Shown: positions 33,705 through 43,453, numbered from the stretch's first letter. The stretch is DNA of 64,000 nucleotides from an uncultured Bacilli bacterium (GCA_947625575.1 CANQOV010000002.1:1457-65456); one strand, 5' to 3'. Made by a program: numbers and translations. The notes: a model not told the origin generated them from the letters alone.

Positions 33705-35912
33705 ATGAAAGTTGAATTACTTGCTCCAGCAGGAGATATGGAAAGTTTAAGAGCGGCAGTTATGTATGGTGCTGATGCTTGTTATATTGCTTTTAAAAAA
33801 TATGGTGCTAGAAAGTTTGCTAAAAATTTTACTTTTGAAGAAATTGATACGGCAATAAAGTTTTGTCATTTATATGGGGTTAAATTATATGTGACAGTTA
33901 ATACATTAGTTTATGAAAATGAGGTTGATGATTTTTTAGAGTGTATTTCTAAGTTACATAGTATGGGTGTTGATGCAGTTATAATGCAAGATTTAGGTAT
34001 GATTGATCTAGTACATAAAATGTTTCCTAATTTGGTTATTCATGCTTCTACTCAGTGTGATAATCATAATAGAGAAAAGTTAGAACTTTTAAAAAATTTA
34101 GGGGTAAAAAGAGCTGTTTTAGCAAGAGAAATGTCAATTGATGAAATAAAAAAATTAGATGTTGATATTGAAAAAGAAGTTTTTATTCATGGAGCAATGT
34201 GTGTTAGCTATTCGGGACTTTGTTATTTTTCTTCTTCGATATTAAATAGAAGTGGTAACAAGGGAGAGTGTGCTGGTATGTGCAGATTGCCATATAGCTT
34301 GTATGAAAATGGTAAAAAGTGCAATCTAGGTGGCGATTATATTTTTAGTATGAAAGACTTGGGAGGTTTTTCTTATTTAAAAGAATTATTGGATTCAAAT
34401 GTTACAGCATTAAAAATTGAGGGTAGGATGAAATCAAGTTACTATGTTGGATTTGTAACATTTTTGTATCGTAAATTAATAGATGAATATTATAAAACAT
34501 CTTTAGTAAAAATAACAGATGAAGACTTAGAGAAATTAAAGAAATTATATTATCGTGGTTTTTGTTCTGGATATTTGAAAGAAGATAATTATAAAAATTT
34601 AGTTTCTTTTGATAGCCCTAATCATAAGGGTGTTTTGTTAGGGAAAGTTTTGGATATTTCTTCAAAAATAAAAATTAAATTAGCTTGTGATTTAAATCAA
34701 AATGATGGAATTAGGTTTTCTAATAATGAGGGGATGATTGTTAATTATTTATATGATAGTAAGGGCAAATTAGTTTCTTTTGTTAAAAAAGGTGAAGTGG
34801 CATACGTTGATAATAAAGTTAATTTAAAAGAATTTAAAGATGTTTATAAAACTTTGGATTATAAGCTTATAAAAGAGGTTGGTAATCTTCCTAAAAGAGT
34901 TGTTCCTATTTCTTTTAAAGTTAAGTTAAAAGTAGGAAGTAATCTTGTTATTAGCATTAGTGATGGTGTTAATAGTTTTACTAAAGAGGGTGTAGTAGTT
35001 GTTAAAGCAATTAAAAAAAGTGTTAGTAAAGAAGATATTATTGAAAAATTAAATAAGTTAGGTAACAGTGTTTTTTCTTTAGAGAAAGTAGATATCGACT
35101 ATGACGAGGACGCTTTTGTTCCTATTAGTGAGATTAATAAGTTAAGAAGAGATTTAGTTTTATTACTTACTAGGGAAAGATGTAAAAATAAAGTTTGTTA
35201 TGTTAAATGCAAGGTTAATTATGATTTAGATAAAGAAGAAGTTCTTAGTCCTAAAGTTGTTGTTTCTTCATTAAGAGAAGATACTATTAAAGAGAGTTTA
35301 GGACATGATGTGATGATTTTTACAAAAAATTATCCTTTATATTTAAAATATAAGGATAAAGGCGTTTTATATGAAACACAAAGAGTTGCTAATAAGGTAT
35401 ATGATGTTAAAGATGATGTTTTGCTTGAAGATATTAGTATGATTGATAAATATAAATCTTCTTATTCTGGAGTTTATTTAAATGTTGTTAATTCTTATAC
35501 AGTTAGACTTTTAAGAAGATTGAAAGTAAGAGTAGTTGGTTTATCTTTTGAAAATGATATTAACAATATTTTGTTAATTATGAAAAATTATAAAGAGCGA
35601 TATGGAATAGAAGCTCCAGTTATGGTAATGATGTATGGTAAGGTAGAATTAATGATTATGAAATATTGTCCTATTAATGCTATTTGTTATAAAAATGGTG
35701 CTTGTAATTTGTGTTTAAAAAATAAATATGAAGTTAAAGATAGAAATGGTAAATTTTATTCTTTTCTTACTAATGAGGGAAGTATTAGTCTTTTACATTA
35801 TAAACCGTATACACTTTATCAATATTTTGATAAAATCAAGTCTAGTATTTACATATCATTTACTAATGAAAATATAGATGATGTAAAAGAAGTTTTGGAT
35901 AAAATTAGTTAA
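33705..35912 (+). CDS. peptidase U32 family protein (collagenase-like)
   Basis: N-terminus MKVELLAPAGDMESLRAAVMYGADA and a conserved U32 core. GGTGA SD before ATG 33705. Confidence 0.8.
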   Translation: MKVELLAPAGDMESLRAAVMYGADACYIAFKKYGARKFAKNFTFEEIDTAIKFCHLYGVKLYVTVNTLVYENEVDDFLECISKLHSMGVDAVIMQDLGMIDLVHKMFPNLVIHASTQCDNHNREKLELLKNLGVKRAVLAREMSIDEIKKLDVDIEKEVFIHGAMCVSYSGLCYFSSSILNRSGNKGECAGMCRLPYSLYENGKKCNLGGDYIFSMKDLGGFSYLKELLDSNVTALKIEGRMKSSYYVGFVTFLYRKLIDEYYKTSLVKITDEDLEKLKKLYYRGFCSGYLKEDNYKNLVSFDSPNHKGVLLGKVLDISSKIKIKLACDLNQNDGIRFSNNEGMIVNYLYDSKGKLVSFVKKGEVAYVDNKVNLKEFKDVYKTLDYKLIKEVGNLPKRVVPISFKVKLKVGSNLVISISDGVNSFTKEGVVVVKAIKKSVSKEDIIEKLNKLGNSVFSLEKVDIDYDEDAFVPISEINKLRRDLVLLLTRERCKNKVCYVKCKVNYDLDKEEVLSPKVVVSSLREDTIKESLGHDVMIFTKNYPLYLKYKDKGVLYETQRVANKVYDVKDDVLLEDISMIDKYKSSYSGVYLNVVNSYTVRLLRRLKVRVVGLSFENDINNILLIMKNYKERYGIEAPVMVMMYGKVELMIMKYCPINAICYKNGACNLCLKNKYEVKDRNGKFYSFLTNEGSISLLHYKPYTLYQYFDKIKSSIYISFTNENIDDVKEVLDKIS

Positions 35913-36854
35913 TTATATTTCAAAAGTTGTTTCATCTATAAATTTGTAATTTGTTTTGTATTTTAATTCTCTAACAAGCTTAAATAATGCTAAATCTTTC
36001 TGCTTGGCTTCTAACATTATATCAATATCAGTATTAAGAGGTTTTAGTTTTTCTAAGAAATTTATAAAATCATCAGAATTAATATAATCATTGTGATAAC
36101 GATATTCTTTTTTTTGATTGCTCTTTGGAGATGAAAAATGCATTTTTGGTCTTTTGCCATGCCATGTTTTAATGATGTCATCTAAGTAATAGGATATGTC
36201 ATGCTTACTTGGATTTGTCATATTATGATGATAGTCTAAGACAAGTGGTATGTCTAAATCTTTACATAAAGATAAAGTATCTTCGACATTATATGTTTTA
36301 TCATCATTTTCTAAAATAATTGATTTTCTTACTTTTATTGGTAAATTATTAAAAGTGTTTTTAAATTTTTTTAAGTGTAAACTTTTGCCAAAAGTGGCAC
36401 TTCCTATGTGAAGAATTATTTCTTTGTTGGGTATTTTTAAAGCTTTTAATATCTTATAGTGGTAGTTTAGTATTTTAATGGCATTATCTATCACTTCTTT
36501 TCTTGCACTATTTAAGATGGTGTATTGATCTGGGTGCATATCTATTCTTAAATTGTTTTCTAATATCATGTTACTTAATTCTTTATATTCATTTTGATAG
36601 GGAAGTATATAATCTAGATTTAATTCATTTAAAGTTGCTAAAGGAATTATTGATGAAGATAGTCTAAAGAAATGAATATTATTTTTAATATTGTATTTTA
36701 ATATTTCTTTTAATGTATGTAAGTTGTCTAATATTATTTTTTCTATTTTATTTTGGTTGGGATTTTCTTTGAAAGATTTATATGAAGTTGTTTTAAAACT
36801 AATATAGTCATCTAAAGTAAGGGGTTTATAAACATATCCTAATCTTATAATCAT
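35913..36854 (-). CDS. uvsE: UV DNA damage endonuclease
   Basis: Strong UvdE signatures (LENDDKTY, HFSSPKS, IMLEAKQKDLAL). Confidence 0.85.
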   Translation of the reverse strand: MIIRLGYVYKPLTLDDYISFKTTSYKSFKENPNQNKIEKIILDNLHTLKEILKYNIKNNIHFFRLSSSIIPLATLNELNLDYILPYQNEYKELSNMILENNLRIDMHPDQYTILNSARKEVIDNAIKILNYHYKILKALKIPNKEIILHIGSATFGKSLHLKKFKNTFNNLPIKVRKSIILENDDKTYNVEDTLSLCKDLDIPLVLDYHHNMTNPSKHDISYYLDDIIKTWHGKRPKMHFSSPKSNQKKEYRYHNDYINSDDFINFLEKLKPLNTDIDIMLEAKQKDLALFKLVRELKYKTNYKFIDETTFEI

Positions 36855-36983
36855 TTTTATTCACCTGTATAAGTTATGATTGTTTTTTGAAAAAAATATA
36901 CAAAATCGATAGACAAAATTAGTGATTTTTTCTAAATTGTATTTATTTTGTTTTTGAGATAAGGCTGACAAAGCTCTGTGTGT

Positions 36984-36992
36984 GGGGGGGGG
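36984..36992. repeat. G9 homopolymeric tract preceded by (GT)3, in a promoter region
   Basis: The sequence is gtgtgtGGGGGGGGGtgttataat. It is the only G run of this length in the window. Confidence 0.9.
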
Positions 36993-37028
36993 TGTTATAA
37001 TTAAACTTGTAAGGGTATTTACAAAATA

Positions 37029-37547
37029 ATGAAGGAGGTTTGTAAAAAAATGGAAGAGGATATAGAAACAAATTCTATCTATAGTGAGGATAAAGAAGCA
37101 TTTGAAAAAACAAGATTAGAAAACTTAAGAAAAGAAAGATTAGCTGCTATACAAAAAGCGAAAGAGAATATTCCTAGTTGGATTGAAAGAGGAAAAGCAT
37201 TAATTTTTCCAGAAAGACAAGCTGATTGGGAAAAATGTGTACGAACACACGCGAATTCTATATATAATGGAGAAGATTTAGATGCTGCATTGAAAGTTAT
37301 GGAAGTTTTAGAAAATGGTGCTACAATAGAAGAAGCAAAACAAGTTTTAAAAGAACAAGATTTTGAGCCAGCAGTTTTGCAAATTTTATTTTTATTTTCT
37401 AGTAGAGGTCCAGAATTATTTGAATCAGCTGCTTATTGGAAATTATCAGATAAGGATAAAGAGATAATTGAAGCAAAAAAACAAGAAAATGCTTGGTTAG
37501 CACAAATTAATGATTTTAGGAATAAGGGACATAAGCATAATAATTAA
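37029..37547 (+). CDS. hypothetical protein (165-172 aa ORFan)
   Basis: A GAAGGAGG SD at 37032-37039 favours ATG 37050 as the start. No recognisable domain. G+C appears slightly elevated. Confidence 0.5.
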   Translation: MKEVCKKMEEDIETNSIYSEDKEAFEKTRLENLRKERLAAIQKAKENIPSWIERGKALIFPERQADWEKCVRTHANSIYNGEDLDAALKVMEVLENGATIEEAKQVLKEQDFEPAVLQILFLFSSRGPELFESAAYWKLSDKDKEIIEAKKQENAWLAQINDFRNKGHKHNN

Positions 37548-37611
37548 AAGTAATAAAGAAAAACAAAAAAACTTAATTTCAAATTAGAAACTAAGTTTTT
37601 TATTTTTATAA

Positions 37612-37703
37612 TGGCGGAGTGGGAGGGATTTGAACCCTCGCAGCAGAAAACCCGCTCTACATCCTTAGCAGGGACGCCTCTTCAGCCTCTTGAGTACCAC
37701 TCC
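37612..37703 (-). tRNA. tRNA-Ser (anticodon GCU)
   Basis: Long-variable-arm tRNA on the minus strand. Acceptor GGAGUGG, anticodon stem CGTCC/GGATG with loop CTGCTAA, a GAGGG-TTCAAAT-CCCTC T-arm, and encoded CCA. Confidence 0.75.
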
Positions 37704-37904
37704 AAGGACATTTTTTTAAAATGCATATTTATTATATGATAAAAAAAAGATAATTTCAATACATTTTATAAATTTGTTAATTTTTGTTATATCAGTAATA
37801 AATTGTGATGACTTTAAAAATTTTATGTGTTATAATTTTGCTAGATAGGAAGTATTAATTCTTTTTGTTATTAATTCTTAATATATTATACTGGAGGAAA
37901 AAGT

Positions 37905-38849
37905 ATGAAAGTATGTAGTAAATGTAAAAATAAAGTTAGTAATAAAACTAAGATATGTCCAAAATGTGGTAATGATGTATCTATGGCTAAAATTATTGTT
38001 GATAATAAGAAAACTAATAATAAAAAGATAACTAAACCAAAACCTGTAGAAGTAAAAGAAGAAGTTGTAGAAACAAGAAAAGTTACAAATAAAAAGAAAC
38101 AAGATCAAAAGAAAGTAAAAAAAGAAAATAAAAGTAAGATAAACATTAAAGTTGTTAAAAAGAAAAAAAGTAAATTTAAAACATTTATAGATGATTTATT
38201 TAAATCTAAAAAGAAGAAGAAAAAGAAATCTGTTAAAAAAGTTAAAGAAGTTAAAGAAATTAAAAAAGAAACTATAGTAGATGAGGATTTTAGTGATGTT
38301 AATAATAAATCTAGTAGTTTGATTTGGATTTTAATTGTTGTAGGGGTTGTTATATTTTTTACAATTTGTTGTATCGTTGTTGTTAATTTTTCTTTTGGAA
38401 AGTATGACGATGAAATTAGTAGTAAAGAATATGGTAAACATTATAAAATAGGAGATAGAGTTTTATATAATGATGTTATTTATAGTTTAAATTCTGTTAG
38501 TTTAATAAATGGTACAGAACATAGTAAACCTAAAGACGGCAATCAATTTGTTTTAGTAAGTATTAGTATGGAAAACATTGGAGATGAAAAAATAAAATAT
38601 AGTTATAGTAATTGGAAGATGAGTAATTCTAAAGATGTAGAAACATCTAGAATTTTTACACCTGTTAATGCTAGTAGTGCTCTTTATAATGGAACGTTGT
38701 ATGTAGAAAGTAGTAAAAGTGGTACAATGGTGTTTGAAGAAGCTATAGATGAAGATTTAGAACTTCGTTTTTATGAAAAGATAGAAGAAGAAAATGAAGA
38801 GCCATTATTTAAATTAATATTTGTTTATGATATTGGTAAAGTAAAATAA
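37905..38849 (+). CDS. zinc-ribbon / single-TM / DUF4352-like extracellular domain protein
   Basis: N-terminal CSKCKN ... CPKCGN zinc ribbon, a K-rich linker, a TM helix, and a C-terminal beta-rich domain. Confidence 0.55.
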   Translation: MKVCSKCKNKVSNKTKICPKCGNDVSMAKIIVDNKKTNNKKITKPKPVEVKEEVVETRKVTNKKKQDQKKVKKENKSKINIKVVKKKKSKFKTFIDDLFKSKKKKKKKSVKKVKEVKEIKKETIVDEDFSDVNNKSSSLIWILIVVGVVIFFTICCIVVVNFSFGKYDDEISSKEYGKHYKIGDRVLYNDVIYSLNSVSLINGTEHSKPKDGNQFVLVSISMENIGDEKIKYSYSNWKMSNSKDVETSRIFTPVNASSALYNGTLYVESSKSGTMVFEEAIDEDLELRFYEKIEEENEEPLFKLIFVYDIGKVK

Positions 38850-38874
38850 AAGCCGTTTTTAACGGCTTTTATTT
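38847..38874. terminator. bidirectional terminator
   Basis: AAAAGCCGTT-ttta-ACGGCTTTT hairpin. Confidence 0.6.
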
Positions 38875-39729
38875 GTATGTTTCTTGTTTTATTAAATCTA
38901 AATTTTTATACATTAATGAGATATAATCTTCATTATTTTTATAATCTTCTTCGGAGATTGTCTCTAAAGTTTTGTAGGTTATAGTCTCTTTATTTGTTTC
39001 GTTTAATAATTCAGTTACTGCTGGGGGTGTTATTAAGTTTTCTTTAATAAATATATATGATAAATTATCGTTTAGTAAAGATTTTGCTGTTTGAATATTT
39101 TTATCAATATTTTTATTTTCACTTGTTAAGTTAATAACATTAAAACCATATTTTTGTAGAAAATTTAAAGATTCATCTGCGACTATTATAGTTTTGTTGC
39201 TAGAGTTATCAGCAGTTGTTTTAAATTCTGTTTCTAGTTCTGTTATATCAACTTTTAATAAATTGTATTCGTTTTCTATTTCATCTTTTATATAACTATT
39301 TGTTATATATGCTGATAATTCATTTTTTATATTTTGACCAATCATTAATATATTAGCAGGATTTAACCAAAGATCTGAGGGAGCATAGGTTAAATCTATT
39401 CCATAAGAAGCATTAATTATTTTTAATCTATTGTTGTAATTAATCATGTCTTTAGCTAATTCTCTTTCATCATTTTTACCATTGTAGATAAACAAATCTT
39501 TTTTACTAAAGTCTTTTATTTCTTTATTAGTAAATTTATAGGTATTAACATTTGAACTTTTAGGATAAATACTTTTAATTTCAGCATAATTGGAATATAA
39601 TCTATTAGCAACATATTCAAATGGGTAGATAGTGGAGATTATTTCAATATCTTCCATTTTATCTCGTTTAAAACAACCAGTTGTTAATAATAAAATTAGA
39701 ATTAATAATATATATAATTTCTTTTTCAT
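38869..39729 (-). CDS. lipoprotein, TroA/ZnuA-like solute-binding fold (metal-ligand His apparently absent)
   Basis: Lipobox LLLTTGC. N-terminal EIISTIYPFEYVANRL and C-terminal MYKNLDLIK resemble cluster-9 substrate-binding proteins. AAGGAGA SD. It lies immediately downstream of yidD. Confidence 0.45.
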   Translation of the reverse strand: MKKKLYILLILILLLTTGCFKRDKMEDIEIISTIYPFEYVANRLYSNYAEIKSIYPKSSNVNTYKFTNKEIKDFSKKDLFIYNGKNDERELAKDMINYNNRLKIINASYGIDLTYAPSDLWLNPANILMIGQNIKNELSAYITNSYIKDEIENEYNLLKVDITELETEFKTTADNSSNKTIIVADESLNFLQKYGFNVINLTSENKNIDKNIQTAKSLLNDNLSYIFIKENLITPPAVTELLNETNKETITYKTLETISEEDYKNNEDYISLMYKNLDLIKQETYK

Positions 39730-39730
39730 T

Positions 39731-39949
39731 TTATTTCTCCTTTTTTGGTACAGGGTCATAACCATATGTTCCAAAAGGGTTACACCTTAATATTCTTTTT
39801 ATAGATAAATATAAACCTTTTTTAAGACCATGGGTTGTTATAGCTTCTTTGGCATAGTTTGAACAAGAGGGGATATGTCTACAATAGTTATGACAACTTA
39901 ATGGGGTATTTTGATAAATATTTATTAGTTTTAAGAGAAAGTTTTTCAT
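39731..39949 (-). CDS. yidD: membrane protein insertion efficiency factor YidD
   Basis: 72 aa with an (IxxYQxxxS...C..IPSCSxYA) pattern. Confidence 0.75.
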
Positions 39950-40044
39950 CTTACCACCTGTTTATATTTTACTATTATTTTTTTTATTTAGCAATGTTAA
40001 TGGTTATTTTTTTAAAAATGTGGTATAGTTTAGTTGGTGATTGT

Positions 40045-42244: not shown

Positions 42245-42307
42245 GTAAAACTATGTGTAAAATTTATTAGTCAAATGCTTGACAATATATATATATATAT
42301 ATATAAT
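42245..42307 (+). promoter_or_regulatory. promoter cassette copy 1 (TTGACA-(TA)n spacer-TATAAT), 52-bp core repeated at 43724
   Basis: GTAAAACTATGTGTAAAATTTATTAGTCAAATGCTTGACAATATATATA recurs at 43724-43772 with one mismatch. The -35 TTGACA is at 42279-42284, the -10 TATAAT at 42302-42307, and the 17-bp spacer is entirely (AT)n. Confidence 0.65.
42285..42305. repeat. (AT)10 dinucleotide microsatellite forming the promoter spacer
   Basis: atatatatatatatatatata can be read directly from the sequence. Confidence 0.9.
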
Positions 42308-42340: not shown

Positions 42341-43453
42341 ATGAATAGAAATTTGACAGAAGAAGAAAAAAAAGAACAGGAAAGAAGAACTTTAGAGGAA
42401 CACAAAAAAAATGTCTTTGACACATTGGAACAAGTTTTTAATGCTGAGACTTGTGGTGAATTAAAACATATTTATGAAAAAATGGTGTCTGTTGGCGGAG
42501 ATTTTCTAGGTTGGGGTGGACGTAGTAAAATTGTTAAAGGTAATAGTGATGCTACTGAAAGATTTGAAAAATTTTTTAGGTCTATGCAAATTGGTAATTG
42601 TGTAGATCCACAAGATTTTGATATGGTCCTTGCTTATTTAAAAGATGCTGGATATAAATATGATTATAATGAATGCCAGGTTAAATATCTTAATTATATG
42701 TATAATTTATATGCTTTTAGTGCTAATAAGGGTTTATCTAATTTCTATGTAGATAGTTTGACTGTTGAAAATCTTGATAAATTAGGAGAATTATCAAGGC
42801 ATACAAGGGAAGACAGAAAAGTTTCAATTAATGACCATGCAATAAATTTAAGTGGTAATGATAGGTCCCCTAATATTTATCTTGCACCTAATAATACTTA
42901 TCGTGTTGAGAACATGATTGCATCGCTTCAAAAATCTCTTGTTGATGCTGAAAAAACATTGCCTGCTTATAGGGAAAAGTATAAGCAAATAGAAGATAAA
43001 TATTATAAGATGTTATTTGACTATAGAAAGAAAAGTGTTTTTGGCAGACTTGTATCACATATTAGAGGAGAATACAAAGAATTAAGGTCAGAATTGACTT
43101 CTATGAAACAAGAAATGGAAAAATTAAAAACTTTGGGCTTAAGTCAAATGACTTCTATACAGAAAGCAAAAAACTTTGAAGAATTAAGAGAAAAAAATGA
43201 TGATGAAAGGGAAAAATTTCAAAAAGAATCAAGGAATTTAGAATATAAGAAAAGAGATGCTGAAAAAGAAATGAAGGAAGGAGACGTGAAAATGAGAACT
43301 GTTGGGAAAATTGATGATGCTTTGCGTGATTTGCGTAATGATTATGAGGCAAATTCAAATTTTGTTTATGGTGAACGAAATTCTGAGCCTTTGTTAAAAC
43401 CTATTGAAGTTCCAGAGCTTTCTGAAGATGAAAATACAGGGAGGTCTAGATAA
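42341..43453 (+). CDS. hypothetical protein, ORFan A (370 aa; N-terminal globular region and a long C-terminal coiled coil)
   Basis: Composition is atypical for the host (richer in R, G, Q and C codons, higher G+C). There is no stop over 1.1 kb. Confidence 0.55.
   Translation: MNRNLTEEEKKEQERRTLEEHKKNVFDTLEQVFNAETCGELKHIYEKMVSVGGDFLGWGGRSKIVKGNSDATERFEKFFRSMQIGNCVDPQDFDMVLAYLKDAGYKYDYNECQVKYLNYMYNLYAFSANKGLSNFYVDSLTVENLDKLGELSRHTREDRKVSINDHAINLSGNDRSPNIYLAPNNTYRVENMIASLQKSLVDAEKTLPAYREKYKQIEDKYYKMLFDYRKKSVFGRLVSHIRGEYKELRSELTSMKQEMEKLKTLGLSQMTSIQKAKNFEELREKNDDEREKFQKESRNLEYKKRDAEKEMKEGDVKMRTVGKIDDALRDLRNDYEANSNFVYGERNSEPLLKPIEVPELSEDENTGRSR

Follow-up and report, generated by a model that had tools for sequence, protein, structure and literature searches.

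Promoters that switch by slipped-strand mispairing are familiar from mycoplasmas and from Gram-negative pathogens of mucosal surfaces. In Neisseria meningitidis the promoter spacers of porA and opc carry poly-G and poly-C tracts, respectively, and in Haemophilus influenzae a (TA)n repeat fills the spacer between the -35 and -10 elements of hifA/hifB. To our knowledge, hardly any such switch has been documented for the uncultured low-GC Bacilli that commonly inhabit the guts of animals and humans. A promoter tract of poly-A has been described for N. meningitidis nspA (PMC6389960). In Bordetella pertussis, G/C homopolymers in promoters (the poly-C of fim) vary among otherwise clonal isolates (PMC1891110), and in Helicobacter pylori the poly-T tract of the sabA promoter gives graded modulation and not strict on/off spacing (PMC2715451).

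The window analysed here, a stretch of 64,000 nucleotides with a G+C content of 26.2%, comes from an uncultured Bacilli bacterium whose relatives are gut MAGs, and it carries a run of nine G's upstream of a gene for a 165-aa protein (Table 1). We consider it somewhat more probable than even (about 0.55) that this G9 is a functional slipped-strand, or contingency, promoter tract, its effect on transcription being judged from the sequence. In the mechanism that we propose, a slippage-prone G9 would lie inside the core promoter of an acquired single-gene cassette between uvdE and tRNA-Ser. Slippage during replication would add or remove one or a few G's, the geometry of the promoter would be altered, and the accessory gene would be transcribed at different levels among cells or strains ('phase' or 'volume' variation). 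The regulated product would be a cytoplasmic, acidic, all-helical protein of a family found on chromosomes, plasmids, phages and a mobilisable element of gut Firmicutes. The features on which the sequence-only reading had built its proposal (the G9, the -10, the SD, the ORF and the tRNA) were all found where it had placed them.

As in Neisseria porA, opc and nspA, a mononucleotide run lies by the -35/-10 region, where its length would set promoter strength, and the architecture of a homologous promoter in another species (the L004 type, see below) is the same. Unlike in Neisseria, the tract belongs to a Gram-positive gut bacterium of low GC content, the protein appears cytoplasmic and is not a surface antigen, and the window has no usable -35. 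The fim tracts of Bordetella lie between the binding site of the activator BvgA and the -10, whereas no activator is evident in the window. The sabA promoter offers the best functional analogy for the -35-independent promoter of the window, although its tract is T-rich, lies near the -35, works together with a coding CT repeat and controls a surface adhesin.

Table 1. Features of the uvdE to tRNA-Ser region and of the neighbouring repeat-bearing promoter, in coordinates of the 64-kb window.
Feature	Position	Strand	Remarks
uvdE (UV damage endonuclease)	35913..36854	-	Conserved left neighbour; Pfam UvdE, E = 3e-74
uvdE promoter and SD region	36855 to ~36907		Conserved in the nearest relative; local alignment with L055
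Probable lineage-specific inserted segment	~36908..37560	+	AT-rich leader, G9 promoter and ORF; boundaries approximate
CTGACA	36965-36970	+	Sole -35-like hexamer nearby; 25 nt from the -10, too far
(GT)3	36978-36983	+	Directly 5' of the G tract; read from sequence
G9 homopolymer	36984-36992	+	About -16 to -24 of the predicted promoter; candidate slipped-strand tract
Putative extended -10, TGTTATAAT	36993-37001	+	Adjoins the G9 without a gap
SD, GAAGGAGG	37031..37038	+	11 nt 5' of ATG 37050
165-aa ORF	37050..37547	+	Core-domain-only short form; family large and uncharacterised
AT-rich hairpin with adjoining U-run	37566..37601	.	Inverted repeat in the gap from the ORF stop to the tRNA-Ser 3' end
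tRNA-Ser(GCU)	37612..37703	-	ARAGORN; Rfam tRNA, 51.9 bits; 3' end faces the ORF
TTGACA-(AT)10-TATAAT	42279-42307 ((AT)10 at 42285-42304)		Exact 17-nt spacer; just after the hsp20 gene

The G9 is the sole run of G or C longer than five in the whole window, where a first-order Markov model predicts about 0.019 runs of nine or more G's and about 0.0002 of C in 64 kb; the tract is thus the strong outlier that it had been taken for. Homopolymers of T9 and A8, and 15 runs of G5, also occur in the window. From the G9, which adjoins TGTTATAAT, the distance to the start codon of the 165-aa ORF is 57 nt. The element TGNTATAAT is mildly enriched in the window (19 copies against 12.3 expected), with several copies just 5' of genes, and the homolog loci carry an extended -10 of the TGnTATAAT type about 20-50 nt 5' of their start codons. 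As TGNTATAAT occurs just 5' of several genes and the family homologs use the same element, the assignment of the putative promoter in the window, with its predicted start site, is reasonable. The earlier placement of the tract in the core promoter region of the ORF agrees with this, since the tract abuts a putative extended -10 of a type that the homolog loci share. A search of the leader against Rfam returned zero RNA families.

The promoter of the window has no -35-like hexamer 16-18 nt 5' of its -10, and the promoter scan called no -35/-10 pair at CTGACA, for which a spacing of 17 nt would be reached only if the G tract shrank to a single G. The classical on/off spacing model is therefore not directly applicable to the window, and the proposal of a contingency promoter stands in part: length variation and recurrence at a homolog speak for it, and the lack of a -35 at working distance speaks against it. 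A change in the tract of the window would be expected to cause graded modulation or little effect, because the gain or loss of one G would not restore the spacing to CTGACA; it may matter little also because a TGnTATAAT promoter is not -35-dependent. A change in length might tune expression instead of switching it fully, through the properties of the spacer and the phasing of the AT-rich sequence upstream; alternatively, the present G9 might be a low-expression state. How tract length affects expression in the window is thus uncertain. The same promoter could also be read as carrying a tract that is hypermutable but neutral, the extended -10 firing whatever its length, and this we regard as unlikely, though worth weighing throughout: with no -35 at a functional distance, a perfect TGnTATAAT may be enough alone, and the run may be a mutational by-product, grown, for example, in spacer sequence that an acquired cassette can do without.

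A homolog in another species, P0007, is 54% identical and lies at a different site, between fmt and DUF1540/rlmN; its promoter has the form TTGAC-Gn-TTATATGATATTAT. Of the 11 contigs, which come from different samples or runs, 10 carry a G9 at this place and the remaining one (L016) a G8. In the L004 lineage to which this promoter belongs, TTGACG is followed by 16 nt (G8 + TTATATGA) and by TATTAT preceded by TG, by its sequence a good sigma-A promoter. The run would here fill the spacer between a near-consensus -35 (TTGACG) and TGaTATTAT, as in a textbook switch, and its exact position between a good -35 and the -10 is hard to reconcile with neutrality. A G9 gives the spacer of 16 nt, a G10 would give the optimal 17 and a G8 gives 15. 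A sister lineage, L061, has a protein 86% identical, the same fmt/DUF1540 synteny and a G7 at the same promoter position. The gene of L061 is intact in spite of a spacer of no more than 13 nt, which fits a neutral tract; that the tract has stayed at one promoter position in lineages with 86% protein identity, however, does not. Since the run is G9 or G8 in the P0007 lineage and G7 in the sister, the tract, as far as can be read from these records, has been kept at one position while its length changed.

Short-read assemblers break at homopolymers. In the P0007 lineage, seven independent Logan contigs (those listed are L016-L020 and L023) begin 20-22 nt 5' of the tract; the start shifts with tract length, and the first 31-mer just spans the tract. 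These starts are as expected for a branch of a k = 31 assembly graph at a tract that is heterogeneous in length. The G8 and the contig breaks in the P0007 lineage could in principle come from sequencing slippage at the homopolymer, and it might be held that the tract is stable, the length differences and contig breaks being artefacts of sequencing or assembly and the G9 an odd but invariant part of the promoter. We find this improbable: L016 (G8) and L017 are identical over 3,722 nt except for the tract, the G7 occurs at the same site in the sister lineage, and the contig starts move with the length of the tract. Contig breaks at other homopolymers, such as the T9 and A8 of the window, also seem not to be obvious. 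Assembly breakpoints may, as an aside, be a cheap signal of hypervariable homopolymers in metagenomes.

For the window species itself, three further assemblies from other samples span the promoter (L001, L002 and L035). L001 and L035 share the G9 of the window and L002 has a G10, so that every window-species record other than L002 agrees with a stable tract. L002 is an assembly of about 2x. It lacks 14, 26 and 93 nt at three places, and its U32 gene, a housekeeping gene, is disrupted by a homopolymer change from A6 to A7. The G10 could be an assembly error, and it is weak evidence because it comes from a low-coverage assembly with other indels, as would be expected if the tract were stable. 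The changes in L002 lie at window positions 34570-34583, 35323, 36645-36670 and 37211-37303 and hit the U32 gene, uvdE and the family gene. The deletion of 93 nt is in frame and drops 31 residues (about 55-85) of the family protein. Either the strain behind L002 is in decay or its low-coverage assembly is faulty. If the deletion is taken at face value, it suggests that the gene is dispensable, which would suit a neutral tract in its promoter.

The 23 distinct family loci (249 kb) hold only three runs of eight or more G's or C's. Each is a G9, and all three lie on the strand of the family gene and within 161 nt of it. For the two tracts outside the window the probability of this is about 0.017, the window being left out of the calculation as it had been selected for the feature. 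The tract is in the promoter in the window and in L004, and in a coding region in L003. In a wider scan, 15 loci from metagenomes or viruses had no G run of seven or more, and three further contigs had none of six or more. A promoter tract is present in only 2 of about 25 family lineages. It is therefore a lineage-specific gain and not a feature of the family as a whole, as the 18 further family loci have no tract. That most lineages of the family do without a tract is again compatible with a neutral run; G runs of eight or more are, however, extremely rare in these genomes and yet recur at the same family, which favours a slipped-strand tract with a function.

The tract in L003 (6605-6613) falls in codons 15-18 (SSLGGGY) of a gene for a 634-aa single-pass membrane protein, which lies directly 3' of the family homolog, with a sortase-domain protein and a surface protein encoded upstream. 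This gene is probably a translationally phase-variable surface gene.

It is likely that the ORF of the window starts at ATG 37050, which gives the 165-aa form held in public databases (P0001) and is preceded by a strong SD; an alternative ATG at 37029 has no SD. The G+C content of the ORF, earlier called slightly raised, is 29.7% compared to 22.5-26.3% for its neighbours. The hairpin downstream (folding energy -10.2 kcal/mol, z = -2.3) is probably a bidirectional terminator for the transcripts of the ORF and of the tRNA. ARAGORN and Rfam agree on a tRNA-Ser(GCU) on the opposite strand after the ORF.

The nearest relative is L054/L055, whose UvdE is 62% identical; nothing closer was found other than the same strain. 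The order U32 peptidase-uvdE-tRNA-Ser is kept there, and the segment with the ORF is absent. From the start of uvdE to the 3' end of the tRNA there are about 85 nt in L054/L055 versus 757 nt in the window, and in a local alignment homology to L055 runs from uvdE to about 36907 and resumes at about 37563 into the tRNA. Because uvdE and tRNA-Ser are only about 85 nt apart in the relative, the segment from about 36908 to 37560 is probably an insertion at the 3' end of tRNA-Ser, as judged from one distant genome; with a single distant genome for comparison, a deletion in L054/L055 may formally account for the difference instead. The suggestion that the tRNA had served as an insertion site was thus half right. 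The insertion would lie by the 3' end of tRNA-Ser, but there is no integrase ORF between uvdE and tRNA-Ser, and no repeat of the 3' segment of the tRNA was found in 36500-38000. A classical tRNA-targeted island, which would bring an integrase and an att-like repeat of the tRNA end, was ruled out. The G tract as the boundary of the insertion was also ruled out, as it sits about 75-76 nt inside the left boundary.

The position of the tract between the divergent uvdE and ORF would also suit a fixed cis element, either bound by a regulator or acting as a stiff G/C stretch that shields the uvdE promoter from the acquired one, with variation in length being incidental. G/C tracts have unusual helical properties. 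We nevertheless give this explanation very little credence: the promoter and SD region of uvdE that is conserved in the relative ends about 75-76 nt before the tract, fmt is co-directional in both L004 and L061, which leaves no divergent promoter to insulate, and no regulator gene is linked.

The protein had been described as an ORFan, and this did not hold. A word-indexed search gave 31 homologs at E <= 1e-27 with about 50% identity, zero of them with a Pfam domain, and an exhaustive HMM search over 1.84 billion cluster representatives matched at least 1,319 clusters (50% identity) at E <= 1e-3, 209 of them at E <= 1e-30. The description of a helical protein of 165 aa without a recognisable domain fared better. 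Pfam, NCBIfam, PHROGs and PADLOC gave nothing above threshold for the window protein, and the AlphaFold models show all-helical cores, with pLDDT of 88 for the window protein and 91.5 for the full-length P0007. Foldseek found no match at E < 0.1 for these models in the PDB or in BFVD, and a PDB sequence search with the family profile and two Tad3-positive members returned chance matches only. The protein thus belongs to a large sequence family with no structural relative in these searches.

Most members of the family are 199-215 aa long and carry at their N-terminus an additional alpha/beta domain, about 55 aa in length, with the motif LESxVxTLLxAKxRGExVYCxFNGxxLHSD. This domain is missing from the window protein, and tblastn and three-frame translation found no trace of it in 36855-37050. 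That the ORF might be a 5'-truncated or frameshifted gene was considered and rejected, there being no upstream trace and short forms recurring in other lineages. Because forms with the core only recur in several lineages, the window gene is, by its sequence, a normal architectural variant and not an obvious pseudogene. The 'QGHSGxS' loop of the family is shortened in the window protein (QDFE----PAV). Tandem fusion is frequent in the family, with as many as five copies in one protein (P0032, 892 aa), and the fusion partners in the long members gave no Pfam domain. P0032 (L048, 1348-4026), P0033 and P0036 are tandem-module polypeptides of up to five copies with a coiled-coil tail. The family proteins are hydrophilic and acidic (pI near 5; net charge per unit, -6 to -14), and neither a signal peptide nor a membrane segment is evident from their sequences, read without a prediction tool.

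The genomic settings of the homologs are diverse. They lie between fmt and DUF1540/rlmN, between smpB and spoVG, and between surface-protein genes, and one comes immediately 3' of a Mob_Pre relaxase, on a small element whose other genes include Bro-N, HTH and IS66. Others are on megaplasmids of Lysinibacillus, Clostridium perfringens, Paenibacillus and C. botulinum, the C. perfringens homolog adjoining an MT-A70 methyltransferase, and homologs also occur in two human-gut phages. In 4 of the 23 distinct loci, the window included, no more than about 310 nt separate the gene from a tRNA 3' end. The window gene is, as far as these comparisons go, probably accessory and horizontally acquired. A phage-tail-like block in L011 (1184-6617), with fn3 and 'tip attachment protein J' Ig domains, ends with the family gene, which is directly 5' of tRNA-Leu and tRNA-Met, a position typical of prophage 'morons'. 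L058 (1-100) and L059 (1-65) share an identical family gene and 113 nt upstream, after which the sequences diverge; this hints that the family gene and its promoter may move as a unit with a defined 5' boundary.

The role of the family may be accessory, derived from mobile elements and possibly anti-defence. Tad3 is a phage inhibitor of the Thoeris TIR protein ThsB and, like the family, is found on mobile elements; it has been reported to act through a flexible loop (PMC13402655). Positions of about 25-61 (of 119) of the Tad3 profile (PF25185) repeatedly match the helix-loop segment 'EEAKxIFxxQGHSGxSxxxVR' of the family. Close relatives score 13.9-20.7 bits, below threshold, and the distant P0352 scores 27.2 bits over 37 residues, the gathering cut-off being 27 bits. 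The match spans only about 25-37 residues. In contrast to Tad3, the window protein has the matching loop shortened and gives zero match to the profile, and neither a chain named Tad3 or Thoeris nor any significant match came up when the PDB was searched by sequence. The Tad3-like motif in the family is thus only a weak lead to a possible homology. It is a very improbable idea that poly-G has been gained repeatedly on a mobile anti-defence or immune-modulating family acting through a Tad3-like loop, and that gut Bacilli turn this domesticated anti-immunity gene on and off at random to hedge their bets; if it were true, the bet would be hedged between keeping defences active and admitting foreign DNA.

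A second repeat-bearing promoter nearby, which had also been pointed out, does exist 5 kb away from the G9. TTGACA-(AT)10-TATAAT is built like the hifA/hifB promoter of H. influenzae, a likeness that concerns this neighbouring locus and not the G9, and from its sequence it reads as a textbook dinucleotide-repeat promoter switch. The gene 3' of it is a 370-aa ORF (42341-43453) with zero Pfam domains; that it might be a relative of the family was ruled out (hhalign probability 0.1%). The + strand has a GC skew of +0.20 to +0.53 in every 2-kb bin of 1-64000 (G 18.1%, C 8.1%). The skew is uniform even in bins with genes on both strands (for example 36001-40000) and is unusually strong for bacteria.

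Slipped-strand promoter control is an established mechanism. The new aspects are the host group, the uncultured low-GC gut Bacilli, and the target, an unnamed family that is widespread and has links to mobile elements. Three repeat-bearing loci in three lineages, together with the (AT)10 promoter of the window, suggest that contingency loci are part of how these gut Bacilli work. Such loci would be findable from assemblies alone, with contig breaks at the tract as a usable signal. The family, with at least 1,319 clusters, a confidently predicted fold that has no solved relative and members that are often tandem fusions, would be a reasonable target for functional work, because randomised expression of it seems to pay.
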